DNA of 64,000 nucleotides, from positions 14,489-78,488 of the forward strand of contig JADGBR010000010.1 of assembly GCA_015231405.1 (NCBI GenBank), in the 5' to 3' direction. Positions 30,202 to 58,351 of this stretch are shown in pieces. How positions within the stretch are numbered: the first letter of the stretch is position 1; each line of letters opens with the position of its first letter. The notes below the pieces were generated by a model. That model was not told the DNA's origin and ran no database searches. It worked only from the letters and a program-made list of their open reading frames with translations. Position numbers and translations under genes: made by a program. This stretch comes from Candidatus Omnitrophota bacterium (GTDB lineage: Bacteria; Omnitrophota; Gorgyraeia; Tantalellales; Tantalellaceae).

Positions 30202-30203
30202 GA

Positions 30204-30698
30204 CTAAATCATCCCGGTTCTCTCTAAATAGTTGTTCAAGGGCATAAAGATGATCGGTGAAAGGATCAAAGTGACGACCACCACCCTCCAGTTATCCGCA
30301 ACCGCCGAAAGGAACCTGATGTCGTTACCGGTGAGGATATTGAGGTAGGCCGTATGCGCAAAGACCAGAGAGATCATGGCAACGAGCATGACAAATATGT
30401 GCAGAACAGGGCTGTTCCTGTAGAACATACCGGACATCATGCTCGAAAAGAGCGCTATGAGTGGAAAGACCACAATATCAGCGGGAAGGGTATGCGCCGA
30501 AAAAAAGCCCCTAAGGGCGCCGAGAAGAAATCCGGAAATGACCCCGTTCCCCATCCCTCCGAAGATAGAAATAAAAACTACCGCAAGAAGAATAAAATCG
30601 GGGCACCATACTGAGCCCGGGCTGAAGCGGATCTGGGCAAGAAAAGCCATAAAGAAAAATAGATAAATTCCCGGCAATTTTCTTATTTCAGAACGCAC
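30204..30698 (-). CDS. mreD: rod shape-determining protein MreD
   Basis: 164-aa polytopic membrane protein. Assigned by its position between mreC and mrdA. Confidence 0.6.
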   Translation of the reverse strand: MRSEIRKLPGIYLFFFMAFLAQIRFSPGSVWCPDFILLAVVFISIFGGMGNGVISGFLLGALRGFFSAHTLPADIVVFPLIALFSSMMSGMFYRNSPVLHIFVMLVAMISLVFAHTAYLNILTGNDIRFLSAVADNWRVVVVTLILSPIIFMPLNNYLERTGMI

Positions 30699-31462: not shown

Positions 31463-31517
31463 ATCAAAATAAATTGTCAGACTTGAATGAACCTCTATCC
31501 CTCACTGATAAAAAGAT

Positions 31518-32579: not shown

Positions 32580-32647
32580 ACCCACACCTTCTTTCTTATA
32601 TTTAAAGGATTTAAAGCGGATAAATTACACAAAAAGAAGCTCATTGG

Positions 32648-32676
32648 ATAGTAGCAAATATATGGGGGTTTGTCAA
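32648..32676 (-). promoter_or_regulatory. sigma70 promoter TTGACA-N17-TACTAT upstream of mreB
   Basis: -35 at 32676..32671 and -10 at 32653..32648. Confidence 0.55.
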
Positions 32677-32756
32677 ATAATTTCTAAATAACGTGGAACG
32701 TGTGACATGGGACGAGAAATCTAGGACGTCCTACGTCCTACCCCGTCCTCCTTTAA

Positions 32757-36186: not shown

Positions 36187-36671
36187 TTGCTTTCTGATCG
36201 TTCTCTTTTCTCCTGGCATTTTATGCAATAGTGCGCCTGGGGCATAGCTTCCAGTCTCTGCCTGGATATTTTCTCGCCGCACATCTCGCAGCCCCCGTAC
36301 AAACCTTCATCGATCTTTTTTATGGCTTCGTCCAGCGAATAGAGCAGCTGCCTTTCACCCTCCGCCAGGCCGAGTATGAACTCACGATCGTACATGTCGG
36401 TCGCCATGTCGGCCATATGGAAAGAATAACCGGACAGATCCCCGGAGGCGTCTTTCTGGGATTTGCTGGCATCCTTCTTTATACGCTTCAGCTCCTCCAG
36501 TATCCCGGCCCTCTCCTCGACAAGGCTATCGCGCACCTTCATCAGTTCCGGGCTTATCTTCACATTTTTCTTTTTCGGAGCATTCAATTCATTCTTTTTC
36601 TGCGCCTTTACGGTTTTCTGTTTGGGCTTGGAACTTTCGATCTTTTTAACCGGTTTTTTCTTATTGGCCAT
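36183..36671 (-). CDS. DksA/TraR-family C4 zinc-finger protein
   Basis: C-terminal CEMCGEKI...CIKCQ with a coiled-coil region. Start taken at M25 (MANKKKPVKK), just after the ileS stop. The track start is a TTG that overlaps ileS. Confidence 0.6.
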   Translation of the reverse strand: MANKKKPVKKIESSKPKQKTVKAQKKNELNAPKKKNVKISPELMKVRDSLVEERAGILEELKRIKKDASKSQKDASGDLSGYSFHMADMATDMYDREFILGLAEGERQLLYSLDEAIKKIDEGLYGGCEMCGEKISRQRLEAMPQAHYCIKCQEKRERSESK

Positions 36672-39495
36672 CGCTATTTCTCCTTTCGTCCATGACATTC
36701 CCGCATCTTTGGCAAAGTTCCGGGTATTTTGAGTTGACTCCAACTATTTCGGCGTAGTTCCAACACCTGGGACATTTACAGCCCCTGGCCTTCCTTACTG
36801 ATATTAATAAAAGGCGCCCGCCGACCTTTTCCATATCTACGGCTGGACAGGCGACGATCTCCACCTGCGAAACCCTAAAAATAAAAGCCATAAGATCCCT
36901 CGAGCCCGAAAGAAAATCCGACTCTTTTGCATCCTCGGAATAAAGCTCAATTCTAGCATCAAGCGAGCTCCCTATCAAGCCTGTCGCCCTTTTTTCTTCA
37001 AGGGACTTCATCACCTCATTCCTTAAAGCGATGAGCCCGTCCCATTTGATCATAAGCGGCTCATCGTTCCATCCGGAGATGTCGTTCGACAACCCGGGCC
37101 ATAGCGACATATGCACGCTTTCCTCTTTTCCGTCGCATTTCACATATTCCCACACCTCATCCATCGTAAAAGCCAGTATCGGAGAAAGTATCCTGGTAAT
37201 GACGTCAAGGAGATGGAATATGACGGTCTGCCCGGAACGCCTCTGGGAAGACCCGGGAGACACTACGTACATGATATCCTTCTGTATATCAAGGTAAAAA
37301 GAGCTTATATCGGTCACGCAAAAATCATAGACCGACCTGTAAACTTTGTAAAACTCGAAATTGGCGTAATATCCGTCGTTATCCTTTACCAGCCTGTACA
37401 GTCTCGAAAGCATCCACCTGTCCACCTCATGCAATTCCCCGGGCGGCACACAATCGCGGGCATGGTCATAATCATAGAGGTTGCTTATGAGATATTTCAG
37501 CGTGTTCCTTATTTTCCTGTAACCGTCCGCGAGCCTCGCGAGTATCTCATCCGATAGTTTAATATCGCCCGAATAATCGCTGGAAGATACCCACAGGCGC
37601 AGGACATCCGCGCCGTACTTTTTCATTATCTCTTCCGGCTGGATGACGTTCCCCAGAGACTTTGACATCTTTTTCCCTTCGCCGTCCACGACAAAACCGT
37701 GCGTCAATACCTTCCTGTAGGGTGGGACGCCGTTTATGCCCATGGAGGTTATAATAGCGGCCTGGAACCAGCCCCTGTGCTGGTCAGAACCTTCGAGGTA
37801 GAGGTCGGCTGGGAAAGACAATTCCGGCCTCGCTTGCAGGACCGCCCTGAAACTGACTCCGGAATCGAACCATACGTCAAGTATATCCTGTTCCCTCACA
37901 AGGTCATCTTTCGCGCATTCAGGGCATTTTGTACCGGCGGGAACTATCTGGTCGATGGCTTTTTCGAACCACGCATCGGCCCCGTCCTTTTCGGTCAGCT
38001 TCGCCGTATTCCTGATGATCTGAGCAGTAGTGAACGCCTTGCCGCAGGAGCGGCATTTGACGGCCGGTATAGGAACGCCCCAATAGCGCTGCCTGGAGAG
38101 ACACCAGTCGGGTCTACCGGAGATCATTGCGCCTATTCGGTCAACGCCGCCTCCGGGAACCCACTTAACTTCATTATTTATGGCATGGACCATTTTCTCT
38201 CTGAGCCCGTCATGGTCGATCTTCATGAACCATTGTTCCGTCGCCCGGTAAATTATCGGGTCCTTGCATCGCCAACAATGCGGGTATGCATGCGTTATCT
38301 TATCGGCTAGGACAAGAGAACCGTTACCGGCCATTTTTTCTATTATCGCCTTATTCGCCTTGAAAACATCCTCACCCTCGAATTCTCCCGTCCCTTTCTT
38401 GAATCTCCCGCGTTCATCGACGGGCATAATAACGGGAAGCGAGAATTTTTTACCCGTGATATGATCGTCAGCTCCATGCCCGGGGGCCGTATGCACCGAG
38501 CCAGTACCTTCCTCTTTTGTAACATACGCCGCCGGGACAAGAACGGAATCCCTTTCAATGAATGGGTGTCTGACTGCCTGGATATCCTTTATGACCCGCT
38601 CGCCTGACATTTTCTCGAGTAAGGAGTAATTCCCCGCCGAGAATCTTTTCATTAACGGCTCAACCAGCTCGGACAACATCACCCATACTTCAGCGCCGAC
38701 CTCTACAAAGCTGTATTCAAATCCCGGGTTCAGGGCCACCGCCACGTTACCGAGAAGCGTCCATGGCGTCGTGGTCCATACGATGAAAACCAGATTTTTC
38801 CCGCGGTAAAGGTTTTTGGCGGGGAACTTCACGTATATGGACGGCGAGACCTTGTCCTCATACTCTACCTCAGCTTCGGCAAGCGCCGTTTCGCAGGTCT
38901 TACACCAGTTGACCGGCTTTAAGCCTTTGTAGATGAACCCTTTTTCATAGAGGTCTGCCAAAGCGTAAAGTATATTAGCCTCATAGGCTCTCGACAGTGT
39001 CAGATAAGGGTCATCCCAGTTCCCGAAAACCCCGAGCCTTTTGAACTCCTCTGCCTGTATCTTTACGAATTTCATGGCGTATTTATAAGCTTTTTTCCTG
39101 AACTCGACCTGAGATATATCGTTCTTGGTCATATTGAGCTCTTTGAAAAGCTGATGTTCTACCGGAAGGCCATGGCAATCCCATCCGGGTACGTACGGGG
39201 CATAATTTCCTTTTAACGCAGCGTATTTTACCGAGATGTCCTTAAGTATCTTGTTAAGGACATGACCCATATGTATGTGTCCGTTGGCGTAAGGCGGACC
39301 GTCATGAAGGATGTAAGTTTTCCCCGACGGCCTTCTCAGTGCGAGTATCTTTTCGTAAACCTTCATACCGTCCCATTTTCTTAGCGTCTCAGGCTCTCGC
39401 CTGGGAAGGTCCGCCTTCATCGAAAAAGTTGTTTTCGGAAGGTTCAGGGTATCTTTATAATTCGGTTTATCGTTCATTTGTTCCCTTGGATGCAT
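36661..39495 (-). CDS. ileS: isoleucine--tRNA ligase
   Basis: 944 aa with the HMGH and KMSKS motifs and a C-terminal zinc-ribbon cysteine cluster (CPRC..C..C). Confidence 0.95.
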   Translation of the reverse strand: MHPREQMNDKPNYKDTLNLPKTTFSMKADLPRREPETLRKWDGMKVYEKILALRRPSGKTYILHDGPPYANGHIHMGHVLNKILKDISVKYAALKGNYAPYVPGWDCHGLPVEHQLFKELNMTKNDISQVEFRKKAYKYAMKFVKIQAEEFKRLGVFGNWDDPYLTLSRAYEANILYALADLYEKGFIYKGLKPVNWCKTCETALAEAEVEYEDKVSPSIYVKFPAKNLYRGKNLVFIVWTTTPWTLLGNVAVALNPGFEYSFVEVGAEVWVMLSELVEPLMKRFSAGNYSLLEKMSGERVIKDIQAVRHPFIERDSVLVPAAYVTKEEGTGSVHTAPGHGADDHITGKKFSLPVIMPVDERGRFKKGTGEFEGEDVFKANKAIIEKMAGNGSLVLADKITHAYPHCWRCKDPIIYRATEQWFMKIDHDGLREKMVHAINNEVKWVPGGGVDRIGAMISGRPDWCLSRQRYWGVPIPAVKCRSCGKAFTTAQIIRNTAKLTEKDGADAWFEKAIDQIVPAGTKCPECAKDDLVREQDILDVWFDSGVSFRAVLQARPELSFPADLYLEGSDQHRGWFQAAIITSMGINGVPPYRKVLTHGFVVDGEGKKMSKSLGNVIQPEEIMKKYGADVLRLWVSSSDYSGDIKLSDEILARLADGYRKIRNTLKYLISNLYDYDHARDCVPPGELHEVDRWMLSRLYRLVKDNDGYYANFEFYKVYRSVYDFCVTDISSFYLDIQKDIMYVVSPGSSQRRSGQTVIFHLLDVITRILSPILAFTMDEVWEYVKCDGKEESVHMSLWPGLSNDISGWNDEPLMIKWDGLIALRNEVMKSLEEKRATGLIGSSLDARIELYSEDAKESDFLSGSRDLMAFIFRVSQVEIVACPAVDMEKVGGRLLLISVRKARGCKCPRCWNYAEIVGVNSKYPELCQRCGNVMDERRNSDGQ

Positions 39496-39519
39496 CCGCC
39501 ATGCATTTTATCATTGTCT

Positions 39520-40383
39520 TTAAATAAACCCCTTAACGATCGGCCCCAGCTTATCCAGCGTTGCGCGAGGAATGGCGTCTTTGCTTGTTATTATCGCGTC
39601 CTTCAACGCGTTCATGCAAGAGCATGTCCTCTTTCCCGGGATACCGGCCACGGTATTAAGGAGCATTTTTTTTGAAGTTTCCGCGTTCTTCATAAGATTC
39701 GCTATTATCATCTCCACCGTTACACATTCGGCGGAAGGACCTTCGCGCCAGCAGTCATAATCGGTTATCATGGCTATCGAAGCGTAACATAACCCGGCCT
39801 CGCGGGCAAGCCTTGCCTCGGCGATATTTGTCATGCCTATGACATCCGCCCCCCATGAACGGTAAAGTTCGGATTCGGCTTTAGTAGAAAAAGCCGGACC
39901 TTCCATGTTTATATATGTACCGTCGCGGTGTATCTTTACGGGCATTTTCGCGTTCAGGTCATAAATAGCCGCTCGAAGTGACGGGCAAACCGGCTCCGCA
40001 AAAGAGATGTGCGCGACGATGCCTTCCCCGAAAAAAGTCATTCTCCTGGCCGAATTCGTCCTGTCGATGAACTGATCCACCAGGAGCATATCTAGCGGCT
40101 TAAGTTCTTCCTTAAGGCTGCCTACAGCCGAAATTGCTATAATGCGGTCAACTCCCAGGACCTTAAAACCGTATATGTTCGCCCGGTAATTTATTTCAGA
40201 AGGCATCAGGCGATGACCTTCGCCGTGCCGGGCAAGAAAAACTACCTCTTTTCCCGACAATTTCCCTTTCATATATTCCCCTGAAGGCTCTCCGAAAGGG
40301 GTCTCAACCTTCACCTTCTCGTCAACCTCTAGACTCTCAATATTATAAAGCGCCGATCCGCCTATCACCCCGATCTTCGTCAT
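39520..40383 (-). CDS. mtnP: S-methyl-5'-thioadenosine phosphorylase (PNP/MTAP family)
   Basis: 287 aa, MTAP-like throughout (MTKIGVIGGS...GMTNIAEARLAREAGLCYASIAMITDYD). Confidence 0.8.
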   Translation of the reverse strand: MTKIGVIGGSALYNIESLEVDEKVKVETPFGEPSGEYMKGKLSGKEVVFLARHGEGHRLMPSEINYRANIYGFKVLGVDRIIAISAVGSLKEELKPLDMLLVDQFIDRTNSARRMTFFGEGIVAHISFAEPVCPSLRAAIYDLNAKMPVKIHRDGTYINMEGPAFSTKAESELYRSWGADVIGMTNIAEARLAREAGLCYASIAMITDYDCWREGPSAECVTVEMIIANLMKNAETSKKMLLNTVAGIPGKRTCSCMNALKDAIITSKDAIPRATLDKLGPIVKGFI

Positions 40384-40385
40384 AT

Positions 40386-40601
40386 TTACAAGACCTCCAA
40401 TATCTTGTTCCTGCTTTTCTCCCCGGCGATTATCCGAACCCTGCTTTTAGGGACCTTATACCTCGCGGCTACCAGCTCGATCACGGACTTGTTGGCTTTT
40501 CCCTTTTCGGGAGCAGCCGAAACATACGCTCTTATCACTCCATCCTTCTCGACAAGCTCCTCTCTCGAAGCCTTAGGGTGGACTTTTACCTCCAGCCTCA
40601 T
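40386..40601 (-). CDS. DUF167 / YggU-family protein
   Basis: 71 aa with a YggU-like sequence (KVHPKASREEL...GKANKSVIELVAARYKVPKSRVRIIAGEKSRNKIL). Confidence 0.7.
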   Translation of the reverse strand: MRLEVKVHPKASREELVEKDGVIRAYVSAAPEKGKANKSVIELVAARYKVPKSRVRIIAGEKSRNKILEVL

Positions 40602-40653
40602 CTCTACCTGCGCTTGCGCTTGATGACCAGGTACTAGTTTTAGGTTATAGATG

Positions 40654-40702
40654 TTAGGTTTTAGGTGTCAATGCTTTACAACAACGAACACCTAAAACCT
40701 AT
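40654..40702. other. intergenic hairpin (TTAGGTTTTAGGTGT-N19-ACACCTAAAACCTAT)
   Basis: 15-bp stem with one mismatch, between yggU and yggT. Confidence 0.55.
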
Positions 40703-40709
40703 AAACCAG

Positions 40710-41006
40710 CTAACCCAACCTGTACGCCAACTGATACAGTATCCCGACTATGACGTTCTTGACCACGCTCAACAAAAGGAACGCCACGATCGGCGAAAAA
40801 TCTATCATGCCCACCTGAAGCGGAAGCCTTCTCAGAGGGGCCAGTATGGGATCGGTGACAGAGTACACTATGCGTACGATCTCGTTATATTCATCCGCTC
40901 CGACCCAAGATATCACTATACGGATCACCAGAATAAAATAGACGACGCTAAAGAGTATCGAGACCAGGAGTGCAAGGCCTCTTATGATCTCAGCAACTAT
41001 GAACAT
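40710..41006 (-). CDS. YggT/Ycf19-family membrane protein
   Basis: 98 aa with two TM helices. It shows YggT-like conservation and sits next to yggU as in yggS-yggT-yggU-type arrangements. Confidence 0.7.
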   Translation of the reverse strand: MFIVAEIIRGLALLVSILFSVVYFILVIRIVISWVGADEYNEIVRIVYSVTDPILAPLRRLPLQVGMIDFSPIVAFLLLSVVKNVIVGILYQLAYRLG

Positions 41007-41030
41007 TGTATCCTTTCGCTCCCCGTTTCA

Positions 41031-41828
41031 TCACCGCGACAATTCTACGGAACGGCATTTCGCCTTATCCACGGCGTTAATTACGATCTTTTTAAGACCT
41101 TGTTTGTCGAATATCCTAAGGGCGGCTTCGGTTGTCCCCCCCTTGGAAGCTACTTGCTTGACCAACTCAGCCGGAATAATTCCATCATCCATAAGAAGAG
41201 CGGCACCCCGAACGGTCTGGCGGACGATCTTAAGTGCGATATCCCTGGACAGACCCATTTTTACCGCCGCTTCGACCATGGAAGCGGCCATGAAGAATAA
41301 ATAAGCCGGTCCACTGCCGGCGACGGCCGTAAATGCGTCAAAATACTTCTCATCAAGAGGAACGACATCCCCAATGGCCTTGAATATGCCTATCGCCTCT
41401 TCCTTCTTCGTTACGTGAATATTAAAGGCTATCGCGGTGACGCTGGCGCCTTTTTTTGCCGCAAGGTTGGGCATCGCCCTGGCGACAGGTGTCTTTTTAC
41501 CTATATATCTGTTTACGGTCGCGATCCTAACCCCGGCCATGATAGTTATTACCATGGTCTTTCCCGTAATATGCCGGGCTATCTCAGGAAAAAGGTCGGA
41601 TGAGTCCTGGGGTTTAACGGCTATTATTATGTAGTCCGACCCCTTAATAAGCGACTCGAGATCCACGCCTACGGCACCTGTCCTTTTAGAAAGGCCCCTC
41701 TGTTTTAAAGCATCCTTATCACTCAGAAAGATCTTCTCCGGCACGCATATTCGCTTCGCTAATAAGCCCTCGGCGATGGAAGCGCCCATGATCCCACACC
41801 CAATAATGCCGACTTTTATTTGTCCCAT
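41031..41828 (-). CDS. proC: pyrroline-5-carboxylate reductase
   Basis: The first ATG is at 41828 (MGQIKVGIIGCGIMG, a Rossmann motif). The track start at 41855 is a TTG. Confidence 0.85.
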   Translation of the reverse strand: MGQIKVGIIGCGIMGASIAEGLLAKRICVPEKIFLSDKDALKQRGLSKRTGAVGVDLESLIKGSDYIIIAVKPQDSSDLFPEIARHITGKTMVITIMAGVRIATVNRYIGKKTPVARAMPNLAAKKGASVTAIAFNIHVTKKEEAIGIFKAIGDVVPLDEKYFDAFTAVAGSGPAYLFFMAASMVEAAVKMGLSRDIALKIVRQTVRGAALLMDDGIIPAELVKQVASKGGTTEAALRIFDKQGLKKIVINAVDKAKCRSVELSR

Positions 41829-41884
41829 TTTATGCGAGTTCCTATGTATACCCAATTGATTTAGAGGACAAAAATATCATACTT

Positions 41885-42123
41885 AGGAGAGAAAGTCAAC
41901 TGAAGAAGGCTCGCACTCGTTAACGCCTTCGGCGCGGGAAACAATGGACCCTTGGGGAACAATTAATACACAGGCTTGAAAAAGCAGGAACAAAATACCC
42001 GCACTCGTCAGCCAAACACGGTTAATGGACCCATACTACTCCCCGGGTTGAAACCCTGGGTTTCCAGGTAAAGACCCATACTGAGGCGGCTTACATGTAA
42101 CCCCGCCTTTAACAGCGGGGTTT
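41885..42123 (+). ncRNA. candidate structured small RNA (unassigned family) ending in an intrinsic terminator
   Basis: The 284-nt gap has no ORF. On the plus strand there is a possible TTGATT-N16/17 promoter at 41856-41884, internal hairpins (GGGTT-ga-AACCC, CCTGG-gttt-CCAGG, GGCGG..CCGCC), and a terminal CCCCGC-cuuuaaca-GCGGGG followed by UUU at 42101-42123. Confidence 0.25.
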
Positions 42124-42139
42124 AGCGCCTCCGAATGTA

Positions 42140-43195
42140 TCAAAAATATCTATCCAGAAAGGTTACGATCTTCTTGTAAGCGTACCTGATAGGATTATCG
42201 GAAGGGACCTCCGCCTTTCTTTCGGCGGCTAAAAGTTCAAGAACGCCTATACAACCCGCGTATCCCATCCTGTCCTCCACTGAAAGCTCATCGAAAGGTT
42301 TCATGATATAGGGAGCTGAACGAACGGGTTTATCGACGCTTTTTTCGAGATATTCCAGCGTTTCGTCGCTGATACCCGATTCGCTGGTAACTATGATCTT
42401 CTTAGCCAGAGCCCATCCGTCCATTTCTTTCACGAAGTCTATGAGTCCGCTGAGATTCTCTTCTGAGACGTTAAGGTCCCCTGCTTTTGAAGATAAATCC
42501 TTGACCGGGATCACACGCGCTGAAAGTGCCTTGCCTTGGAAGAACACCGATAGCTCAATGATATCCTCGTACTGGTTGATAAAAATAACGCCGTCATTCC
42601 TGTCCTTTTCTGGGACAAGGCTGTGGGAATTCGCCAGGCCAGAAAATATTTTACCCCGGCAAGAATATCCCGCGAAAGCGATACTTTTCTCTATGTTCCT
42701 GAGTATCGAGGAATCCATTAAAAGAATATTCATTTCAACCCCGAGTCTCACCCCTTCCAATCCCACAGGCTCAGCGATCCCTCTTTCATTGTCGATCTCA
42801 AACCCGCTAACTATAACGTGAAGGGGTTCCTTACTTTCCGGCAATCTCACTATCGATCCCAATTGAACGCATTTATCCCTGTCCCGTCGGGTGATCTCTC
42901 TGCCATACCTCGAAAGAAGTATGGACCCTTTGGCGGGAAGCATTTCCATTGAGGTGGATGAGACCGCGAAATAAAGATCATATACTTTTTTCCCCGTCTT
43001 CTTCCGCAATTTTTCCATGACTTCCTGAACGGATTCGGAGGCGAATCCTATATCGGTTACCACTCCGCGCTTTATCCCTTTCGCCTGGGCCTTTGCCGAG
43101 CCTTCGATCGCATATTCCGATCTCCCCCGCCATGACGCTATTATCCCGTAAACTTCCTTGCCTTTAAAATCCAGTACGGCGAAACTTTTTGTCAT
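42140..43195 (-). CDS. ftsA: FtsA-like actin-family cell division protein (short, divergent)
   Basis: 351 aa. It aligns with E. coli FtsA through the 1A/1C/2A regions (PLHVIVSGFEIDNERGIAEPVGLEGVRLGVEM against [29 protein letters not shown]). The glycine-rich phosphate motifs (DIGGGT, LTGGA) are not conserved. Confidence 0.65.
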   Translation of the reverse strand: MTKSFAVLDFKGKEVYGIIASWRGRSEYAIEGSAKAQAKGIKRGVVTDIGFASESVQEVMEKLRKKTGKKVYDLYFAVSSTSMEMLPAKGSILLSRYGREITRRDRDKCVQLGSIVRLPESKEPLHVIVSGFEIDNERGIAEPVGLEGVRLGVEMNILLMDSSILRNIEKSIAFAGYSCRGKIFSGLANSHSLVPEKDRNDGVIFINQYEDIIELSVFFQGKALSARVIPVKDLSSKAGDLNVSEENLSGLIDFVKEMDGWALAKKIIVTSESGISDETLEYLEKSVDKPVRSAPYIMKPFDELSVEDRMGYAGCIGVLELLAAERKAEVPSDNPIRYAYKKIVTFLDRYF

Positions 43196-43323
43196 TGCGG
43201 CTCCTTATATCCTATTTAATGATCCAATGTGCTGAGCGGTGAGTGGCCGAAGGTAAAAGTGATCGTGTTCATTGTATTGGACCATTTCCCCTTCCGAGAC
43301 CCGTTCCCCTTGACCCTTAACGA

Positions 43324-44121
43324 TCATTTCGGCGATATCACTATTTTCTCAAACCTCAGGTCGATGTATGCGATCTCTTTCAAATTAACTTTCGGATCCG
43401 ACAGTACCATCTTCAATCGATCTATGTTCCTAGTGAAATCCGAGCGCCCGAGTTTTATAGTGACGCCCGAAAGGTCCATGGTGATATCGTTAATATTGCC
43501 GACATCTACAAAGGTGACCGGAGCTTTTTCTTTTATCCTTTGTTTTTCGACAAGGTTTAATATCTCAAAGGCCTTTTCGACCTGACGCGTAAGCAATACT
43601 TCCCCGGGCCTGGGCGTATTAATAAAAAATTTTACCCCTTTTATCCTTAATAGGTCTTTAACGGACGTATTGTCAGCCATAACCACCGCTTCCCGGTCTA
43701 TAACTACAGCTGGCTTAGCGTCGATGACGGCGTACGGCTCCCTCTCCGTTATTATCACATCTATCCTGTCGGGCAGGACCCTTCGCACTTCGATATACTT
43801 GCACTGAGGACGCGCTTCTTCTATGAAAGCGCGTATCTGCCTTAGATTTATCGAGAATATATTCCGGCCCATGTAAAGGCCTTCGAGGTCAAGGCCCGGC
43901 TTAAGAGAATACTCTTCCGCCCCTTTCTTTACCGATATTTCCTTTACGGAAAAATTATCACTGTCATTCAAAAACCTCCATGTGCCAAATCCAAGGGCCG
44001 AAACAAGAACAGCCGAGGCCAGGAAGGCAACGGTCAACCTGTGGCGCGTCAACCACATAAGATCGATCACTCTTTTAGTGCCGGATCTTTTTTGTCTGGG
44101 CGTTCGTTTTCTCCCCGTCAC
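43324..44121 (-). CDS. ftsQ: cell division protein FtsQ/DivIB (POTRA domain)
   Basis: TM helix plus POTRA-like region. Start taken at the GTG at 44121 with AAGGGG 6 nt upstream, overlapping the ddl stop as TAGTG. The track start at 44166 is a TTG. Confidence 0.7.
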   Translation of the reverse strand: MTGRKRTPRQKRSGTKRVIDLMWLTRHRLTVAFLASAVLVSALGFGTWRFLNDSDNFSVKEISVKKGAEEYSLKPGLDLEGLYMGRNIFSINLRQIRAFIEEARPQCKYIEVRRVLPDRIDVIITEREPYAVIDAKPAVVIDREAVVMADNTSVKDLLRIKGVKFFINTPRPGEVLLTRQVEKAFEILNLVEKQRIKEKAPVTFVDVGNINDITMDLSGVTIKLGRSDFTRNIDRLKMVLSDPKVNLKEIAYIDLRFEKIVISPK

Positions 44122-45074
44122 TATTTTCCCCTTTTTTTGAGCGCGCTGTAAAGTATGACAAGACAAAGCTCATCGAACTCTATCCCAGCCTGTTTTGCCG
44201 CCATCGGCAAAAGGCTTCTCGAAGTAAGCCCGGGGATAGTGTTAACCTCAAGAACGAATATCCTGTTATGTTCGTCCAACCTGAGATCGACCCTGGAAAA
44301 CCCGTCGCAACCAAGGGACATGTGCGCCCTCAAACCGATCTCGCTGGCTCTCTCGGACAACTCCTTGGATATTTCAGCCGGGACTATGTACCTGGTCTCT
44401 TTCGACATGTACTTGGCATTGTAATCGTAGATCCCGCCTTCCGCTCTGATCTCGATGACGGGAAGGGGCCTGTTCTCCAGCACACCTACCGTCAATTCCT
44501 TCCCTGGCACATAATCCTCGACCATCACCTTATCGGAATAATCGAGAGCCGTCTTGACGGCCTTCCTTATATCATTGCCGGTAAATACCACGCTAAGCCC
44601 AATGCTGGAACCCTCGGAAACCGGCTTTACAACGCAAGGATACTTTATTACACGCGATATATCTCTGTCAAAATCCTCGATCACGACATGCCCGGGGGTG
44701 TCTATGTTATCTTTCATGAATTGTTCCTTAGCCGCGAGTTTATCAAGGGCCTTTCGGGAGGAAATATCGTCAGATCCCGTGTATGGTATCCCGAGCCCGG
44801 AAAGCTTTTTCTGTACGGTCCCGTCCTCACCGAACCTCCCGTGAAGGGCTAGAAAAGCGATGTCAAAATCCCTTTCGACGAGAAAATCGAACGATTCGTC
44901 CTTAATATCGATAAAGACGGGATAAAACCCGCATCTTAAAAGAGCGGCTTCGACGGCTCTGCCGCTTTTGAGGCTTACTTCCCGCTCGCTTGAAGGACCT
45001 CCGGCCAGGATGGCTATCCTGAACTCCTTGAGCTCTTCCGCCATTTTTGTGAAGCGATTTTTTTCGTCGGCCAT
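44121..45074 (-). CDS. ddl: D-alanine--D-alanine ligase
   Basis: ATP-grasp, Ddl-like throughout. Start taken at the ATG at 45074, preceded by AGGAG 7 nt upstream. An alternative ATG lies at 45044, and the track start at 45131 is a GTG. Confidence 0.9.
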   Translation of the reverse strand: MADEKNRFTKMAEELKEFRIAILAGGPSSEREVSLKSGRAVEAALLRCGFYPVFIDIKDESFDFLVERDFDIAFLALHGRFGEDGTVQKKLSGLGIPYTGSDDISSRKALDKLAAKEQFMKDNIDTPGHVVIEDFDRDISRVIKYPCVVKPVSEGSSIGLSVVFTGNDIRKAVKTALDYSDKVMVEDYVPGKELTVGVLENRPLPVIEIRAEGGIYDYNAKYMSKETRYIVPAEISKELSERASEIGLRAHMSLGCDGFSRVDLRLDEHNRIFVLEVNTIPGLTSRSLLPMAAKQAGIEFDELCLVILYSALKKRGK

Positions 45075-45090
45075 GCGCTTACTCCTATTC

Positions 45091-45150
45091 GCGATTCGTA
45101 TCGAAAATCGCAGATCTACCCCTACAAACACGAACCACTATCCACGAATC
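45091..45150. repeat. degenerate copy of the GTGGTTCG-type palindromic element
   Basis: The right half CACGAACCACTATCCACGAATC matches the right arms of the copies at 27309 and 58931. The left half retains only GATTCGT. Confidence 0.45.
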
Positions 45151-45177
45151 TAGACCACTATCTTTCATCCCCGATCA

Positions 45178-46092
45178 TCATCCTATTATCTCTATTTCCG
45201 GCTCAAGTTCAACACCGAACATCTTAAAAACCTTATCCCCGGCAACACCCATAAGCCTGGCAACGTCATCGCTCGAAGCCCCTCCCGAATTAACTATAAA
45301 ATTTGCGTGCTTTCCGGATATCAACGCACCGCCGACCCTTGCACCTTTAAGCCCGGCATTCTCTAAAAGTTTTCCAGCCGGCAAAAAATTACCGGCTGGA
45401 TTCTTAAAAACACAACCGAGCGTTCTTTCTTCCAAAGGCTGTTTGAGAAGTTTCTCGATAAAAGTCATTTTTATCCGCTCTCGGATCTCTGACGAAAGCT
45501 TACTCTCCATCAGAAATTCAGCTTCTAAGATAATAGTTTCCCTGAGCGAACTTCTTCTGTAGCTGAACTCAGCCTTCTCTTTTTGTATAACTTCAACTGC
45601 TCCGTCCCTGTTTATGACCTTCACGGACAAAAGGTTCTCGCTGACGGCGCACTTATTGCTCGCATTGTTTATCAGCGCCCCTCCGAGAGTCCCGGGGATA
45701 CCCGCCAGGCCTTCGAATCCGGAAAGACCGTTCTTCGCCGAAAAGGTTATCAAGGAGCTCAGTTTAGCCCCGGCCCCGCTTATCAATATCTTTCCGGATA
45801 CAGTCATGCGCTTAAAATTCTCATGTTCCAGCAATATGAAGACCTTGTCATAATAAATATCCTTAAACAGAAGATTGCTTCCTTTCCCGATGACCATATA
45901 TTGAATGCCGTTCCCAATTAGATATGCGACGAGCGATCCGAGCTCAACCCCGCATGAAGGGCTGTAAACGGAGAAAGCCGTGCCGCCCGCAAAGAAAGTA
46001 TTGTATTTTGCCAGAGGCTCGTCGAAAACGACGGCTCCCCCCATAGCCGCGGCATGAGCCCACAGTGACCGTCTGACCTGCTCTTTATTCAT
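45178..46092 (-). CDS. murB: UDP-N-acetylenolpyruvoylglucosamine reductase
   Basis: 304 aa with an FAD-binding domain and a MurB C-terminal domain. Confidence 0.9.
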   Translation of the reverse strand: MNKEQVRRSLWAHAAAMGGAVVFDEPLAKYNTFFAGGTAFSVYSPSCGVELGSLVAYLIGNGIQYMVIGKGSNLLFKDIYYDKVFILLEHENFKRMTVSGKILISGAGAKLSSLITFSAKNGLSGFEGLAGIPGTLGGALINNASNKCAVSENLLSVKVINRDGAVEVIQKEKAEFSYRRSSLRETIILEAEFLMESKLSSEIRERIKMTFIEKLLKQPLEERTLGCVFKNPAGNFLPAGKLLENAGLKGARVGGALISGKHANFIVNSGGASSDDVARLMGVAGDKVFKMFGVELEPEIEIIG

Positions 46093-47494
46093 TTTTTCCG
46101 CTCTTACTCCCCGTCCCTTTCACTCCGGAACCAGCCCGTATGTTTTCCAGTATCGGCTTACCGGATTCTCTTATATCCCCGGCTCCCGCTATCAGAACAA
46201 GATCCCCCTTCCTGCATATCCCGGAAACATATCCGGGAACATCCTCTTTATTCATGAACTCGACGGACTCGAAATGCTTCCTGTCTATCTTCCTGAATAT
46301 TTCCTCGGACCCTACCTTAAAAGAGTCTGATTCATCGGCAGAATAGATATCCGTAAGTATGAGTATATCTGCTCCCTTAAAACACCCGGCAAATTCATCT
46401 TTAAGGTCAATGGTCCTTGAATACCTATGGGGCTGAAAAACCACAATAAGCTTTCCATCCGGGGAAAAATCACGCGCGGCAGTAATTACCGCCCTAAGCT
46501 CCGTCGGATGGTGTGCGTAATCCTCGTACACTTTCACTCCCCTGGCTTCGCCGACGGGATAAAATCTCCTTTTCACGGTCCGGAAGCTAAGAACGGCCTC
46601 AACAACCTCCTCAAATGAAAGGCCCAGCTCCAGGCACATTCCCACGGCCGAAATGAGGTTCATCACATTATGCCTGCCGATAAGTGTCGACATAACGTCT
46701 CCCCTGATTTTGCCGTTGGCGCAAAACTTGAATTTTATCGACCTTGCGTGTTCGGCGTCCTTCGAATAATATCGCGAAGCCGATGTTTTAGCGAACGAGA
46801 ACGGGACCTTCCTGGACGGAGCGTCAGCGACAAGCTCTTTCAAAAGCTTGTCATCGGCGTTGTATAAGAGCACACCCTCACGGGGCATATTGCCGAAAAA
46901 TTTTCTGTATCCGAGTTTAAGGTTCTCCATGGACCCGTAATGTTCCATGTGCTCCCTTTCCACATTCGTCACGCAAACGTTCGTCGCTCTTATATCCCGG
47001 AAAAAACCGTCGCTCTCGTCAACTTCGGCGACTATCAGGTCATCGTCGCCTAAAAGCGCGTTCCCGCCTATGGATTCTATTTCGCCTCCCACCAGCACCG
47101 TAGGTTGACGTTCGCACTTCCAGAGTATATGCGCGATAAGAGCGCTCGTCGTGGTTTTCCCGTGCGTTCCGGTCACGCCCACCGATATCTTCGCCAGTGA
47201 CATAACCCGCCTTAACAATTCCGACCTCGATATGATCTCAAGGCTCATTTCTTCAGCTTTGATCATTTCCGGGTTATCGTTCGGTATGCTGGTCGATCTG
47301 ACCACTATACGGGCGTCGCCTGGTATATTTAAAGGAGAATGCCCCTTTTTAATGACAGCGCCTTTTCTGGCGAGATGTTCGGTGAGATTATTACTTCTCA
47401 GGTCCGACCCGGAAATACGGTTCCCCTTAGCCAGAAGCACATGCGCCAGAGCGCTCATCCCTATCCCGCCTATTCCGATAAAATGATAATTCAT
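46085..47494 (-). CDS. murC: UDP-N-acetylmuramate--L-alanine ligase
   Basis: 469 aa Mur ligase (GTHGKTTTSAL). Confidence 0.9.
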   Translation of the reverse strand: MNYHFIGIGGIGMSALAHVLLAKGNRISGSDLRSNNLTEHLARKGAVIKKGHSPLNIPGDARIVVRSTSIPNDNPEMIKAEEMSLEIISRSELLRRVMSLAKISVGVTGTHGKTTTSALIAHILWKCERQPTVLVGGEIESIGGNALLGDDDLIVAEVDESDGFFRDIRATNVCVTNVEREHMEHYGSMENLKLGYRKFFGNMPREGVLLYNADDKLLKELVADAPSRKVPFSFAKTSASRYYSKDAEHARSIKFKFCANGKIRGDVMSTLIGRHNVMNLISAVGMCLELGLSFEEVVEAVLSFRTVKRRFYPVGEARGVKVYEDYAHHPTELRAVITAARDFSPDGKLIVVFQPHRYSRTIDLKDEFAGCFKGADILILTDIYSADESDSFKVGSEEIFRKIDRKHFESVEFMNKEDVPGYVSGICRKGDLVLIAGAGDIRESGKPILENIRAGSGVKGTGSKSGKNE

Positions 47495-47531
47495 GTCACC
47501 CCGTTGTTTGTCATATGCTCTCGCACCTTCG

Positions 47532-48629
47532 CTACATTTCGCTCAGAACCAAATCAGCTAACAGACGACCCGCCTCAGGCCTGGCGAGCGAGCCGGCGGC
47601 GGCGCTCATTTTTGCGTAAACTTCACTGCTCTTAAGTATCCTCAATACTTCTTCCGCCAGAAGTCCCGGAGTAAGGTCATTTTCTTCGATCCGGATAGCT
47701 GCTCCGGCTTTAGCGAAATATGCCGCGTTAGTCCTCTGGTTATTATCCCTGGAGGGATACGGAACGAGTATCATGGGCTTCCTGTGATAAGCCAGTTCGA
47801 ACACCGCCGCGGATCCTGACCTGGAGATAGCTATATCCGCAGCCGAATAGGCCGCGTCCATCCTCTCAAGAAAAGAGAAAACGGCCGCGTTAATACCGTT
47901 ATCCCTGTAAAAATCTTTTATCGCCGCATGATCCTTAGCTCCTGTCAAATGTATGAATTCGATATCCAGCGACCTGTCTTCTTTTAGCAGACTAGCCGCT
48001 ATCGACGCCACCCGGTTTAGCGATGAAGAACCCTGGCTCCCTCCCATGACGAGCACTTTTTTTGAGCTCCCGGAGAGTTCCAGGTACTCCATGGCCCCCT
48101 CGCCTATATCCGTCAGATTACAGGACCTTATGGGATTCCCCGTCAATACTACCCTGCCGCGAGAACTACAAGGAAAGAATTGTCCGCTTTCCGGAAAACT
48201 CACCGCTATTTTTCGGGCTATGTTCGACAATATCATGATAGCCCTCCCCGGGGCATGGTTCTGCTCGTGTATCACAAGCGGGATATTAAAGGCTTTCGCG
48301 CAAAGGGAGATCGCTCCCGAAGAATAACCTCCGAAAGCGACTACACGACCGGGTCTTATCCATACCAGAATAGCCGCCGAAAGGAAAGCGTCGGAGACGA
48401 TCTTAAAGGCGAACACCACCCATTTCAGGATATCCTTTCTAAAAGGCATGGGGTTCGCGGAAAGATAAAATGATCTGTATCTAGAGGCGCCTAAAATATT
48501 CCGGTCAAGCTTCCTGTCGCTCGCTACGAAATATATTTCTTTCACGCCTTTTTTTTCAAGTTCCTCGGCGACAGCCGTCGCCGGAAAAATATGTCCACCG
48601 CTCCCGCCAGCGGCGATGATAACCCTCAT
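47532..48629 (-). CDS. murG: undecaprenyldiphospho-muramoylpentapeptide beta-N-acetylglucosaminyltransferase
   Basis: 365 aa GT28 enzyme (GGSGGHIFPA). Confidence 0.9.
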   Translation of the reverse strand: MRVIIAAGGSGGHIFPATAVAEELEKKGVKEIYFVASDRKLDRNILGASRYRSFYLSANPMPFRKDILKWVVFAFKIVSDAFLSAAILVWIRPGRVVAFGGYSSGAISLCAKAFNIPLVIHEQNHAPGRAIMILSNIARKIAVSFPESGQFFPCSSRGRVVLTGNPIRSCNLTDIGEGAMEYLELSGSSKKVLVMGGSQGSSSLNRVASIAASLLKEDRSLDIEFIHLTGAKDHAAIKDFYRDNGINAAVFSFLERMDAAYSAADIAISRSGSAAVFELAYHRKPMILVPYPSRDNNQRTNAAYFAKAGAAIRIEENDLTPGLLAEEVLRILKSSEVYAKMSAAAGSLARPEAGRLLADLVLSEM

Positions 48630-48632
48630 CCT

Positions 48633-49727
48633 TTAATCCGACTCCTCTATATGCCTTGCCATATTCAATATCACCCCTATCGCGGCCAGGTGGACGAGAA
48701 GGGAGCTCCCCCCGTAGCTGATGAACGGGAGCGGGAGGCCTTTAGTCGGGAGCGCTCCGACCGAAACCCCGATGTTGACGATCGACTCAAAAGCGATCAT
48801 TACCCCTATACCAAAAACTACCCTCGACATGAAAACATCCTTCAGTTTAAAAGATATCCTCATCGTAAAGAATACGATCAGAAAGAAGAGCGACAAAACG
48901 GCTATCGCTCCTAAGAACCCCATTTCCTCTCCTATGATCGAATAGATAAAATCGGTATATGATTGCGGCAGATAGAACAGCTTTTGTTTAGAACTGCCCA
49001 GCCCGACGCCGAATATCCCGCCAGAACCCAACGCTATGAACGATTGGATCAATTGAAATCCGGCGCCTTTAGGATCGTTCCATGGCTCGAAAAAGACCAT
49101 CACCCTTCTCAGCCTGTACGGGGCGCTCACTATCGCGAGAAGCAGAAGCGGCATGGCGGACAGAACGATAACGAAAAGATGTTTCAACTTTATCCCTGAG
49201 GCGAACAACATCACCAGCCCGATAACCCCGATCGAAACTGCGGTCCCAAGGTCAGGTTCAAGAAGGACAAGGAGCGACATTAACGAAATGACAGCCACAG
49301 ACGGGACAAATCCGGTAAAGAGGTGATGCATCTTATATCTATTACGGCCGGTAAAATCAGCCAGATAAAAAATAACGGCGAGCTTCGCTATTTCCGACGG
49401 CTGAAGCCCGAACCCTCCTATCCTTATCCATCTTCTGGCTCCGCCGGCGAGTGTGCCAAATCCCGGAAGTGCCACTAGAATGAGCATAGCCAGCGACAGC
49501 AGAAAGAACCACCTGACATTGCCCCTCATCTTCTCAGCCGACATCGACATGCAGAATATCGCCGCTATCATGCCGATGAAGATAAAAATAAGATGCCTTT
49601 TTACAAAATAGAGGCTGTCGCCCAGGGTCTCATATGAATAAACAGCGCTGGACGAATAGATCATGACGATCCCTATCATCATAAGGATGGATACGGATAG
49701 CAAAACTATTTTCGCGTTTATATTCAT
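48633..49727 (-). CDS. ftsW: SEDS-family lipid II flippase / peptidoglycan polymerase FtsW
   Basis: 364 aa polytopic protein, assigned by its position between murD and murG. Confidence 0.85.
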   Translation of the reverse strand: MNINAKIVLLSVSILMMIGIVMIYSSSAVYSYETLGDSLYFVKRHLIFIFIGMIAAIFCMSMSAEKMRGNVRWFFLLSLAMLILVALPGFGTLAGGARRWIRIGGFGLQPSEIAKLAVIFYLADFTGRNRYKMHHLFTGFVPSVAVISLMSLLVLLEPDLGTAVSIGVIGLVMLFASGIKLKHLFVIVLSAMPLLLLAIVSAPYRLRRVMVFFEPWNDPKGAGFQLIQSFIALGSGGIFGVGLGSSKQKLFYLPQSYTDFIYSIIGEEMGFLGAIAVLSLFFLIVFFTMRISFKLKDVFMSRVVFGIGVMIAFESIVNIGVSVGALPTKGLPLPFISYGGSSLLVHLAAIGVILNMARHIEESD

Positions 49728-49749
49728 TTATTTTATGACAGATGAAAGA

Positions 49750-51099
49750 TCAGTTTTTAGCGCCGTAAAGAGAAAGAACTTCCCGCCTGAATACGTCCCC
49801 TCTTTCCTTGTAACCTGAAAACATGTCAAAACTGGAGCACATGGGTGAAAGAAGCACTATCTCGTCCTGCCGGGCGTTCTCCGACGCCGCTTTGACCGCT
49901 TCGGCCATATTTCCGCAGGCGATAACATTGACGAAAGGGCCAAAAGCATCGCGTATCTTTTCCTTCGCCTCACCTATGACGACGATAAGCTTGACATGTT
50001 CTTTTACCGAACTAAGTATCTGCCTGTAATCCCCTCCCTTATCCCTGCCCCCGGCGATAAGTACTACTGGTCTCAAAAGCGAATCCAGGGCCACCCTGGT
50101 AGCATCAATATTCGTCGCCTTGGAATCGTCGATGTACTGGATCCCGCTGAACGACCCTATGGTCTCAAAGCGGTGGTCAAGTGTCTTAAAAGTCTTAATT
50201 GCCGAAAAAATCTCTTTATCGGCCAGACCCATCAACCGTGACGCGGCTATGGAACAGATCATATTGTCGATGTTATGTTTGCCCTTAAGAGGGATATCCC
50301 CGGAGTTCAGGACCTCATGATCGGGATCGGGCTTATTCACGATATTTGCGGCCGGTCTTTTGTCTTCTGCCGCGCGGCTGTGTCCGTAAAAAATGACATT
50401 ACTTTTCAGGTCTTTTACCAGCGGATCTCCCTCCAGGTCGGTATGTATTATCGCCCAGTCGCTGGAGTCCTGGTTCATGAATATCTTGAATTTCTCTTTT
50501 TTATATTCTTCCAGACCGGCGTGCCTGTCATAATGGTCGTCGGTGACATTAAGCAGAAGGGCGATCTTTGGACGGAACCTGTCGATCGTCTCCAACTGAA
50601 AAGAGCTCACCTCTATCACGGCGACGCTGTTCGCGGTCATGGACCCTACGACCCTGGTAAAAGGGATGCCGATATTGCCGCACACGAACGCGTCCACGGC
50701 AGAACTCTTAAGGATATGCCCTATAAGCTCAACGGTAGTACTTTTTCCGTTTGTCCCGGTCACGGCTATTATCGGACTTTCGCAAAAGATGTAACCAAGT
50801 TCTATCTCTCCGATGATCTTCGCTCCCGGAGGTATAAGATCTTTCATCTGCTCGGTGCGGAGGTCCACCCCGGGCGAAGGGATAACGATCTCGGCCCCCT
50901 CGAAGAATTCTTTTGTATGTTTTCCGGACTCGGCGAATATCCCTTTGGCCGAAAGCTCGCGGGTAATAGCCGAAAATCTGTCTGCGGCTGCGGCCTCCGA
51001 CACATATACCCTGGCGCCTTTACTTTTCAAAAGCTCGGCAGATGAGATCCCGCTGACTCCCATGCCTATTACGATCGCTTTTTTGTTCTTGAGATCCAT
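49750..51099 (-). CDS. murD: UDP-N-acetylmuramoylalanine--D-glutamate ligase
   Basis: 449 aa Mur ligase (GTNGKSTT). Confidence 0.9.
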   Translation of the reverse strand: MDLKNKKAIVIGMGVSGISSAELLKSKGARVYVSEAAAADRFSAITRELSAKGIFAESGKHTKEFFEGAEIVIPSPGVDLRTEQMKDLIPPGAKIIGEIELGYIFCESPIIAVTGTNGKSTTVELIGHILKSSAVDAFVCGNIGIPFTRVVGSMTANSVAVIEVSSFQLETIDRFRPKIALLLNVTDDHYDRHAGLEEYKKEKFKIFMNQDSSDWAIIHTDLEGDPLVKDLKSNVIFYGHSRAAEDKRPAANIVNKPDPDHEVLNSGDIPLKGKHNIDNMICSIAASRLMGLADKEIFSAIKTFKTLDHRFETIGSFSGIQYIDDSKATNIDATRVALDSLLRPVVLIAGGRDKGGDYRQILSSVKEHVKLIVVIGEAKEKIRDAFGPFVNVIACGNMAEAVKAASENARQDEIVLLSPMCSSFDMFSGYKERGDVFRREVLSLYGAKN

Positions 51100-51147
51100 T
51101 TAAGCCATCCTTGTTCTCATAAATGAACACATGTGCCGCATAGCGCG

Positions 51148-52236
51148 TTACTGAGCTTTGATCGCCGCCAAAGCCAAAAGCGCCAGTATCGCCGATATGA
51201 TCCAAAACCTTATCGTTATCTTCGACTCTGGCCATCCTTTAAGCTGAAAATGGTGGTGTATGGGAGCCATCAGAAATATCCTCTTCCCTCGCAACTTAAA
51301 AGACGCCACCTGCAGAATCACAGAAAGCGATTCTACCACAAAAATACCCCCGACCAGGAGCAGAAGGAACTCCTTTTTAAGGAACACGCTGATTATCGCT
51401 ATGGTCCCCCCCAGGGACAAAGAACCCGTATCCCCCATGAAGACCGATGCGGGATGGCTATTGAACCAGAGGAACCCCAGGCCCGCTCCGACCATAGCTC
51501 CGCAGAAAGGGGTCAGCTCTCCGGCCCCGGGAAGATAAAAGACATTGAGGTACCCGCTCACAACCGCGTTCCCGGCAATATAGCTCATCAGGGCGTATGT
51601 GAGAGACACGAAGATCATGCAGCCTATAGCAAGCCCGTCCAACCCGTCAGTAAGGTTGACCGCGTTCGACGCACCAACTATAACAAGCCATGCGAAGACA
51701 ATATACAAGATCCCAAGATTGGCCACTGAGTTCTTAATGAACGGAAGATAGAGCTCGGTCCCCATATGTTTATCCGAGACAACATATAACCCTATGATAA
51801 GCGCGACCACGGTCTGGCCAACTATTTTAGTCATCGACCTGATCCCCTTAGCGCTTTTATTACGTATTTTTGTCAAATCGTCCATGAAACCTATCATTCC
51901 AAGCCATAACATCCCGAACAAAAGTAGCAGGACCAGCGCGTTATCAAGCCGGCACCAGAGGATCGCCGAAACGCATACAGAAAAAATTATTATCGCCCCG
52001 CCCATCGTAGGCGTCCCCTTTTTCGTTGTCAGGAAATCATCAAGTTTCTCGACATGCTGGTTCCTGACATATTGCCCTAGCTTTAAGGTCTTAAGCCATT
52101 CGATCATTATCGGGCCTAACCAGATACATAGAACAAAAGAAGTAACCGTAGCCATGCTGGCCCTGAAAGTCAGGTATTTAAAAACGTTGAACCCGAACCA
52201 AAGATCCCTTAGCGGATATAAGAGGAAGAAAAGCAC
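51148..52236 (-). CDS. mraY: phospho-N-acetylmuramoyl-pentapeptide transferase
   Basis: 362 aa. The N-terminus GFNVFKYLTFR matches E. coli MraY. Confidence 0.9.
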   Translation of the reverse strand: MLFFLLYPLRDLWFGFNVFKYLTFRASMATVTSFVLCIWLGPIMIEWLKTLKLGQYVRNQHVEKLDDFLTTKKGTPTMGGAIIIFSVCVSAILWCRLDNALVLLLLFGMLWLGMIGFMDDLTKIRNKSAKGIRSMTKIVGQTVVALIIGLYVVSDKHMGTELYLPFIKNSVANLGILYIVFAWLVIVGASNAVNLTDGLDGLAIGCMIFVSLTYALMSYIAGNAVVSGYLNVFYLPGAGELTPFCGAMVGAGLGFLWFNSHPASVFMGDTGSLSLGGTIAIISVFLKKEFLLLLVGGIFVVESLSVILQVASFKLRGKRIFLMAPIHHHFQLKGWPESKITIRFWIISAILALLALAAIKAQ

Positions 52237-53582: not shown

Positions 53583-53597
53583 TAAATATTCTTTATC

Positions 53598-55034: not shown

Positions 55035-55037
55035 GGT

Positions 55038-56714: not shown

Positions 56715-56832
56715 TTAGCTCCAAAAACACAATTATTTTCAAAAGACTAAGTTTTTATATTGTACCAGATTACCTATTGGTTTTGAAAGGCAGTTTTAAT
56801 GAATTATGGCGCGGCTCTTTCAGGCCCGGAGT

Positions 56833-58331: not shown

Positions 58332-58351
58332 ATCGCCTCCTTGATCATCTA

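Follow-up and report, generated by a model that had tools for sequence, protein, structure and literature searches.

The dcw cluster of an Omnitrophota bacterium ends with a short FtsA orthologue that has no subdomain 2B and whose nucleotide-binding motifs are degenerate

We analysed a 64-kb stretch of contig JADGBR010000010.1 from a Candidatus Omnitrophota bacterium (hereafter, the window), in which the division and cell-wall (dcw) gene cluster ends with a short ftsA gene and no ftsZ follows. This gene, denoted ftsA* (protein, FtsA*), is an open reading frame (ORF) that starts with ATG and encodes 351 amino acids (aa). The gene and its parts, with residues numbered in FtsA*, are as follows:

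42140-43195, minus strand: ftsA*, a 351-aa FtsA orthologue without subdomain 2B and with degenerate nucleotide motifs (ORF, SHS2_FTSA, PDB and fold matches, and the ratio of nonsynonymous to synonymous substitution (dN/dS))
43201-43206, minus strand: Shine–Dalgarno sequence AAGGAG, 5 nucleotides 5′ of the ftsA* ATG (read from the sequence; homologues use the same start Met)
43154-43171, minus strand: phosphate-1 site (residues 9-14), reading DFKGKE instead of DIG[ST]xK (alignments and column conservation in the clade)
42713-42955, minus strand: subdomain 1C, the SHS2 insert, at residues 81-161, where conservation is highest (PF02491 match; predicted local distance difference test (pLDDT) score of the model >90)
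42557-42577, minus strand: phosphate-2 site (residues 207-213), reading NQYEDII instead of DIGGGTx (aligned with FtsA of E. coli and Vibrio; family table)
42410-42502, minus strand: subdomain 2B remnant (residues 232-262), a loop and one helix, against about 95 residues in canonical FtsA (profile alignment and model)
42374-42388, minus strand: adenosine-motif site (residues 270-274), reading TSESG instead of TGG[GA]x (alignments and family table)
42143-42205, minus strand: a short linker followed by an amphipathic helix at the C-terminus (...PIRYAYKKIVTFLDRYF), which probably targets the membrane (invariant YF, hydrophobic moment and model)

Sequence and structure comparisons identify ftsA* as an FtsA orthologue. 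The sole Pfam match to the protein is SHS2_FTSA (PF02491; residues 88-158, E = 1.4e-13), and PF14450 gave no match at E ≤ 1. The curated FtsA model TIGR01174 scores 131.3 bits, below its cut-off of 175.85, and covers residues 6-231 only (positions 3-226 of 371 in the model); NF007009 scores 84.6 bits, under its cut-off of 409. When the single FtsA* sequence was searched against the PDB, the real matches were all FtsA, with 7q6f at the top (E = 8e-20), and a family profile of the short FtsA proteins matched 7q6f with E = 4.5e-64 as against 4.9e-8 for PilM. An AlphaFold2 model computed from the family alignment (pLDDT 87.3; predicted template modelling (pTM) score 0.84) lies nearest to FtsA crystal structures (template modelling score TMq 0.75-0.78; best E, 4e-29). 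Next comes PilM, with TM 0.49-0.59 and E of 1e-14 to 1e-18; MreB and the cytoplasmic domain of GspL are far weaker, the GspL/EpsL structures 1yf5 and 4pht being among the weaker fold matches. The original prediction, made from the letters of the window, of a short FtsA-like gene ending the dcw cluster with its 1A/1C core kept is thus confirmed by the ORF, the SHS2 (1C) match and the superposition on FtsA structures. Its further claim, that the phosphate-1, phosphate-2 and adenosine motifs are lost, holds on alignment to FtsA sequences of solved structure.

An exhaustive HMMER search returned about 30 relatives that match over the full length (343-361 aa, 23-41% identity); next in the ranking come canonical FtsA proteins of about 410 aa, which align to FtsA* residues ~8-232 only. 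A word-index protein search gave a single match, a 90%-identical fragment. The ~350-aa frame is intact in all relatives of the family. Comparison of ftsA* with its 90%-identical homologue (locus L016) gave a dN of 0.05 and a dS of 1.07, hence a dN/dS of 0.047, which indicates strong purifying selection; the stretch NQYEDIIE does not differ between the two. Because of this ratio and the full-length relatives of about 350 aa, ftsA* cannot be taken for a chance ORF.

The shortness of FtsA* results from the deletion of about 65 residues of subdomain 2B. The family profile aligns to E. coli FtsA in two pieces (3-236 with 8-239, and 246-327 with 310-392), such that E. coli residues ~240-309 (about 70 residues, equivalent to subdomain 2B) have no counterpart in the short family. 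In a multiple alignment, the short proteins have a gap of 55-65 columns relative to five canonical FtsA sequences and to three full-length Omnitrophota FtsA sequences of 411-414 aa, which are encoded at the following positions of their own loci:

Locus L010, 9887-11122: full-length Omnitrophota FtsA
Locus L011, 4011-5255: full-length Omnitrophota FtsA
Locus L012, 9674-10918: full-length Omnitrophota FtsA

At the 2B site, the FtsA* model has a low-pLDDT loop (residues 237-241) and a single helix (residues 245-257), and the 1A/1C/2A core is retained, the 1A-1C cleft included. In studied FtsA proteins, strands S12-S13 of 2B are required for FtsZ binding, and 1C serves self-interaction and the recruitment of later division proteins (PMC4281207); filaments form longitudinally through IIA-IIB and laterally through IC-IC, and FtsN inserts its tail into the IA-IC cleft (PMC7613929). 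Loss of 2B therefore takes away the site for FtsZ together with one half of the polymerization interface, and leaves the 1A-1C cleft for bitopic partners in place. Polymerization of FtsA* on membranes is predicted to be impaired, given that the longitudinal contact lacks its IIB side, and canonical polymerization is probably absent.

In the 13-member clade that contains FtsA*, the phosphate-1, phosphate-2 and adenosine columns have conservation values of 0.36, 0.40 and 0.45, which place them among the least conserved; the highest value, 0.59, belongs to 1C. In the other short FtsA proteins the same columns, at 0.69, 0.62 and 0.69, are the most conserved. Replacement of the phosphate-2 Asp by Asn and of the adenosine-motif Gly by Glu or Asp recurs within the clade. 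Judged from these alignments, all three nucleotide-binding motifs are degenerate and without constraint in the FtsA* clade, which suggests that FtsA* does not bind ATP.

At the other end of the protein, the motif F(L/I)DxYF closes all 29 of the 29 aligned family members, with YF invariant. The last 16 residues of FtsA* are predicted to be helical (residues 335-350 in the model). Their hydrophobic moment is 0.62; shuffled sequences give 0.30, and 2.6% of them reach the observed value; the tails of most relatives are similar. The tail of FtsA* is therefore a probable match to the membrane-targeting helix of FtsA. Specific to the clade are the motif RPFExLPxDRMxYxxxLGxLDxL (FtsA* residues 299-322) and the residues W22, Y97 and H126, which are found in neither the other short nor the canonical FtsA proteins; the motif may form a new interaction surface.

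The genes adjoining ftsA* are arranged as follows:

43324-44166, minus strand: ftsQ (POTRA_1 and FtsQ_DivIB_C domains), with a Lys/Arg-rich cytoplasmic tail (family scan; tails compared with relatives)
44121-58870, minus strand: remainder of the dcw cluster, namely mraZ, rsmH, an ftsL candidate, ftsI, murE, murF, mraY, murD, ftsW, murG, murC, murB and ddl
41856-42139, minus strand: 284-bp gap at the usual ftsZ slot, with a terminator-like stem-loop (42021-41999) and, ahead of proC, a promoter-like site (41899-41871)
36661-41855, minus strand: proC, yggT, yggU (DUF167), an MTAP-like phosphorylase gene and ileS (family scan; same order in loci L001-L005)

No ftsZ was found at this position or near it. 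The tubulin signature GGGTG[ST]G is missing from all six frames of the 64-kb window; the same scan recovered intact DLGTAS and DIGGGT motifs in the MreB encoded there, which validates it. Searches by tblastn with three FtsZ proteins (E ≤ 10) of the gap, the window and all loci returned only noise. The gap holds no remnant of ftsZ or yggS (tblastn, E ≤ 10). In about eight distinct Omnitrophota loci, a count from which three metagenome matches duplicating genome loci were excluded, ftsZ is absent within 10 kb on either side of ftsA. The same scans found ftsZ immediately 3′ of ftsA in control loci from Stahlbacteria and Saccharibacteria. A scan of metagenomes mostly repeated loci of the genome set and contributed nothing further. 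The full-length relatives that were located, by means of a five-sequence alignment, lie in Candidatus Omnitrophota metagenome-assembled genomes (MAGs; L002-L005), in agreement with the NCBI names; two relative-bearing MAGs carry the submitter label Planctomycetia.

In many bacteria, for example Bacillus, the order is ftsA-ftsZ-...-ylmE(yggS)-sepF-ylmG(yggT)-...-ileS. By analogy, the arrangement in the window looks like such an extended cluster from which ftsZ has been removed. The order ftsQ, ftsA*, proC, yggT, yggU, MTAP, ileS, dksA-like, lspA, lgt, rluD, murA, mreB is common to L001-L005, and ftsA is placed after ftsQ in these five loci as well as in L014 and L015. In L014, where FtsA is short with largely intact motifs, the order reads ftsQ, ftsA, yggS, proC, yggU, MTAP.

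The missing ftsZ is an already known trait of the phylum, because two earlier studies report its absence at that level. Omnitrophota were found to lack ftsZ save for one archaeal-like case attributed to contamination or recent transfer, and also to lack ftsY and ribosomal protein L30; the ftsZ-bearing ‘Omnitrophica’ genome OLB16 was found not to belong to Omnitrophota (Seymour 2023, Suppl. Note 1, PMC10066038). All 4 true Omnitrophica genomes examined elsewhere lack FtsZ, and three of them encode FtsA (Pende 2021, supplement); a figure legend of the same study lists Omnitrophica with the FtsZ-less phyla of the Planctomycetes–Verrucomicrobia–Chlamydiae (PVC) group. The supplements of Henriques 2025 have no Omnitrophota rows. 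The literature conflicts on this point (PMC10066038, PMC5147048, PMC5945725, PMC12673574), with Omnitrophica being given FtsZ and Planctomycetes being called the sole free-living FtsZ-less bacteria. Two PVC reviews credit Omnitrophica with FtsZ on the basis of OLB16, and the conflict traces to this misclassified genome. The original prediction had noted the missing ftsZ, had offered an FtsZ-less PVC lineage as one option, relocation of ftsZ being the other, and had proposed that the contig be placed taxonomically. The genes following ftsA* (proC-yggT-yggU-MTAP-ileS) bear out the first point, the Omnitrophota relatives and both studies support the second, and relatives with the same synteny in Omnitrophota MAGs assign the contig to this phylum.

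Family scans with NCBIfam and Pfam return the dcw genes in the order mraZ, rsmH, a 121-aa ORF, ftsI, murE, murF, mraY, murD, ftsW, murG, murC, murB, ddl, ftsQ, so that the complete, co-linear cluster described earlier stands, with a family-less ORF in the ftsL slot. This ORF (56833-57198, minus strand) has no Pfam match. The likely true start of ftsQ is GTG at 44121, directly past the ddl stop, as TTG at 44166 would overlap ddl. A Lys/Arg-rich FtsQ tail precedes the membrane helix in the window and in L002, L003, L005, L014 and L015. The gap between ftsA* and proC had been put forward as a small-RNA candidate, a suggestion that did not survive: although it contains local hairpins, its z-score as a structured RNA is -1.1 and it has no Rfam match at gathering thresholds, and we read it as an ordinary terminator and promoter spacer. 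A PilZ-domain protein is encoded directly upstream of mraZ (59092-59583, minus strand). Downstream of the dcw cluster, at a distance of about 8 kb, are murA, mreB, mreC, mreD, the PBP2 gene (mrdA) and rodA (27392-34058, minus strand), in the same order as in L001; the divisome and elongasome genes form, with lgt, lspA and ileS, one long co-oriented block. A type IV pilus block (18408-25313, minus strand) comprises a pilin-like protein that bears an N-methylation motif, PilC, a PilT-like ATPase and two PilB-like ATPases with MshEN domains, together with a separate 149-aa MshEN-domain protein. Finally, the gene at 61471-62514 (minus strand) combines a ParA/MinD-type ATPase (AAA_31, CbiA, MipZ-like) with a C-terminal glycogen-binding module (AMPK1_CBM/CBM48), an unusual pairing.

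These observations suggest, with a probability that we put at roughly 70%, that FtsA in this lineage of a phylum without ftsZ was cut down and is now most likely a nucleotide-independent, membrane-anchored divisome adaptor. FtsA* would sit at the inner face of the membrane without the need for nucleotide, and its 1C subdomain and 1A-1C cleft would hold the cytoplasmic tails of bitopic division proteins close to the septal synthase FtsW-FtsI. MreBCD, PBP2 and RodA could supply positional or synthetic functions, as they do in Chlamydiota. The basic N-terminal tail of the neighbouring FtsQ is a candidate partner; both the adaptor role and the partner are ones that we infer. The FtsQ tail recalls the basic tail of FtsN, which binds FtsA (PMC7613929). 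A broader reading, which we hold only tentatively and at somewhat less than even odds, is that FtsA became, once FtsZ had been lost, the cytoplasmic organizer of an FtsZ-independent divisome in this phylum and forms a graded series from full-length through 2B-less to pocket-dead proteins. The endpoint, represented by FtsA*, would nucleate FtsQLB-FtsWI alone, as a membrane adaptor that neither polymerizes nor carries nucleotide.

Several points weigh against the adaptor interpretation. The FtsQ lead is weak, because basic tails are common in bitopic proteins under the positive-inside rule. FtsZ loss alone does not force the loss of 2B, as L010-L012 keep this subdomain without an adjacent ftsZ, and the order in which 2B loss preceded motif decay is only suggested, because the neighbour-joining tree of FtsA is star-like and unbootstrapped. 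Nucleotide loss is judged from motifs, and some actin-fold proteins bind nucleotide via atypical residues. The search for ftsZ in this organism covers 64 kb, and a homologue of ftsZ or tubulin could lie elsewhere.

This last point leads to the alternative that ftsZ has been relocated, with the short FtsA working with FtsZ via another surface or another protein having replaced FtsA as the anchor. Besides the limited share of the genome that the window represents, the retention of 2B in the long-type Omnitrophota FtsA and the two reviews that give Omnitrophica FtsZ speak for it. However, those reviews depend on OLB16, which is not from Omnitrophota (Seymour 2023); absence is phylum-wide in the same study and extends to the four true Omnitrophica genomes of Pende 2021; the FtsZ-binding lobe of FtsA* is deleted; and the gap is a clean one in an otherwise conserved ftsA-(yggS)-proC-yggT-...-ileS order. 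We consider relocation unlikely. It is quite unlikely, too, that FtsA* still binds or uses nucleotide through non-canonical residues and is thus an unusual active ATPase. The fold and the inter-lobe cleft are kept, and related short FtsA proteins have DIGSSK, DIGxxxTE and TGG, but the pocket columns are poorly conserved in the clade and vary from member to member, and acidic or bulky residues stand in place of glycines (NQYED; TGE/TSE).

The length of FtsA*, which at about 350 aa is PilM-like, the pilus genes at 18408-25313 and the GspL/EpsL structures among the weaker fold matches could point to a PilM/GspL-type SHS2/actin-fold adaptor serving the type IV pilus. Yet ftsA* adjoins ftsQ, 17 kb from the pilus genes, in a position that is kept in relatives; FtsA structures fit much better (TM 0.76 versus 0.5-0.59; E of 1e-29 versus 1e-17); the family profile favours FtsA over PilM by the E values given above; and the tail is of the FtsA type. 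Membership of the PilM/GspL family was rejected on score and context (neighbours ftsQ and proC), and this explanation is very improbable. It is scarcely conceivable that ftsA* is a decaying, functionless relic, as the loss of catalytic motifs, the sub-threshold NCBIfam score and the ‘hypothetical’ label given to relatives by NCBI might suggest. The pseudogene reading is rejected by the dN/dS of 0.047, obtained at a dS of about 1, and the intact ~350-aa frame in all relatives, the invariant C-terminal helix, the strong ribosome-binding site and the confident model run against it as well.

FtsA is usually seen as the membrane tether of the Z-ring, and its FtsZ-independent roles, such as the recruitment and activation of the septal synthase via 1C, are difficult to tease apart by genetics in model organisms. 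Evolution has separated them here: FtsZ has been lost, as have the lobe of FtsA that binds it and the motifs of the ATP site, and what remains stands under strong selection at the end of an intact dcw cluster. A minimal FtsA is thereby defined as 1A-1C-2A plus a membrane helix, which is directly testable for partners and bears on FtsZ-free division in peptidoglycan-containing bacteria. As far as the searchable literature shows, an FtsA that lacks 2B and has a degenerate pocket but remains under selection is undescribed. If the graded series is real, it would represent a third, mechanistically distinct mode of FtsZ-less division in the PVC group beside those of Chlamydiota and Planctomycetota. 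The names given to these proteins differ between databases: those at NCBI (P0003 and P0006) are named hypothetical, and JGI, the source of P0005 and P0012, labels some of the short proteins ‘cell division ATPase FtsA’. Because the proteins score below curated thresholds and are called hypothetical at NCBI, phyletic profiles of Omnitrophota can be expected to under-call FtsA and to disagree between sources.

Set beside known systems, FtsA* shares with canonical FtsA (E. coli, Vibrio maritimus and Thermotoga maritima; TIGR01174, PF14450 and PF02491) its place after ftsQ, subdomains 1A, 1C and 2A, the fold and the tail helix. Unlike canonical FtsA, it has no 2B, its motifs are degenerate, its gene has no adjoining ftsZ and the linker before its tail is shorter. 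The long Omnitrophota FtsA proteins of L010-L012 come from the same phylum, are likewise encoded by the last dcw gene and are followed by gcvT-gcvH or a 1034-aa ORF, never by ftsZ. They are about 20% identical to FtsA* and keep 2B, PF14450 and the phosphate-2 and adenosine motifs; only phosphate-1 is altered, with Tyr or Cys at the place of its Asp (FYIGSTK, FCIGSTK). The short FtsA proteins that retain the motifs (P0018-P0022, P0030, P0031, P0045, P0049 and P0058; locus L014) have the 2B deletion, the YF tail and the ftsQ-ftsA-(yggS)-proC synteny without ftsZ in common with FtsA*. They differ from it in that D[IL]G[ST]SK, D[IV]GxxxTE and (T/A)GG are largely intact, a pattern that may still permit nucleotide binding.

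In GspL/EpsL, of type II secretion, the cytoplasmic domain has no 2B and is not known to bind nucleotide. With PilM, it shares the actin fold and the FtsA-like 1C lobe with FtsA*; similarity to FtsA* in structure and profile is much weaker, the gene context is different and neither protein has an amphipathic tail of the FtsA kind. Both act as adaptors to which a bitopic partner binds by its short cytoplasmic tail; in PilM, the tail of PilN lies in the 1A-1C cleft (PMC7613929). By analogy, FtsA* may resemble PilM and GspL in its mode of working, rather than in family membership. At the level of the whole division machinery, Chlamydiota and Planctomycetota are like Omnitrophota in belonging to the PVC group, in having kept peptidoglycan and dcw genes and in having no ftsZ; MreB, MreC, MreD, PBP2 and RodA are likewise encoded in the window. 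Chlamydiota and Planctomycetota have been reported to lack FtsA too (PMC8178401, PMC12283558, PMC12673574), unlike Omnitrophota, which keep it.

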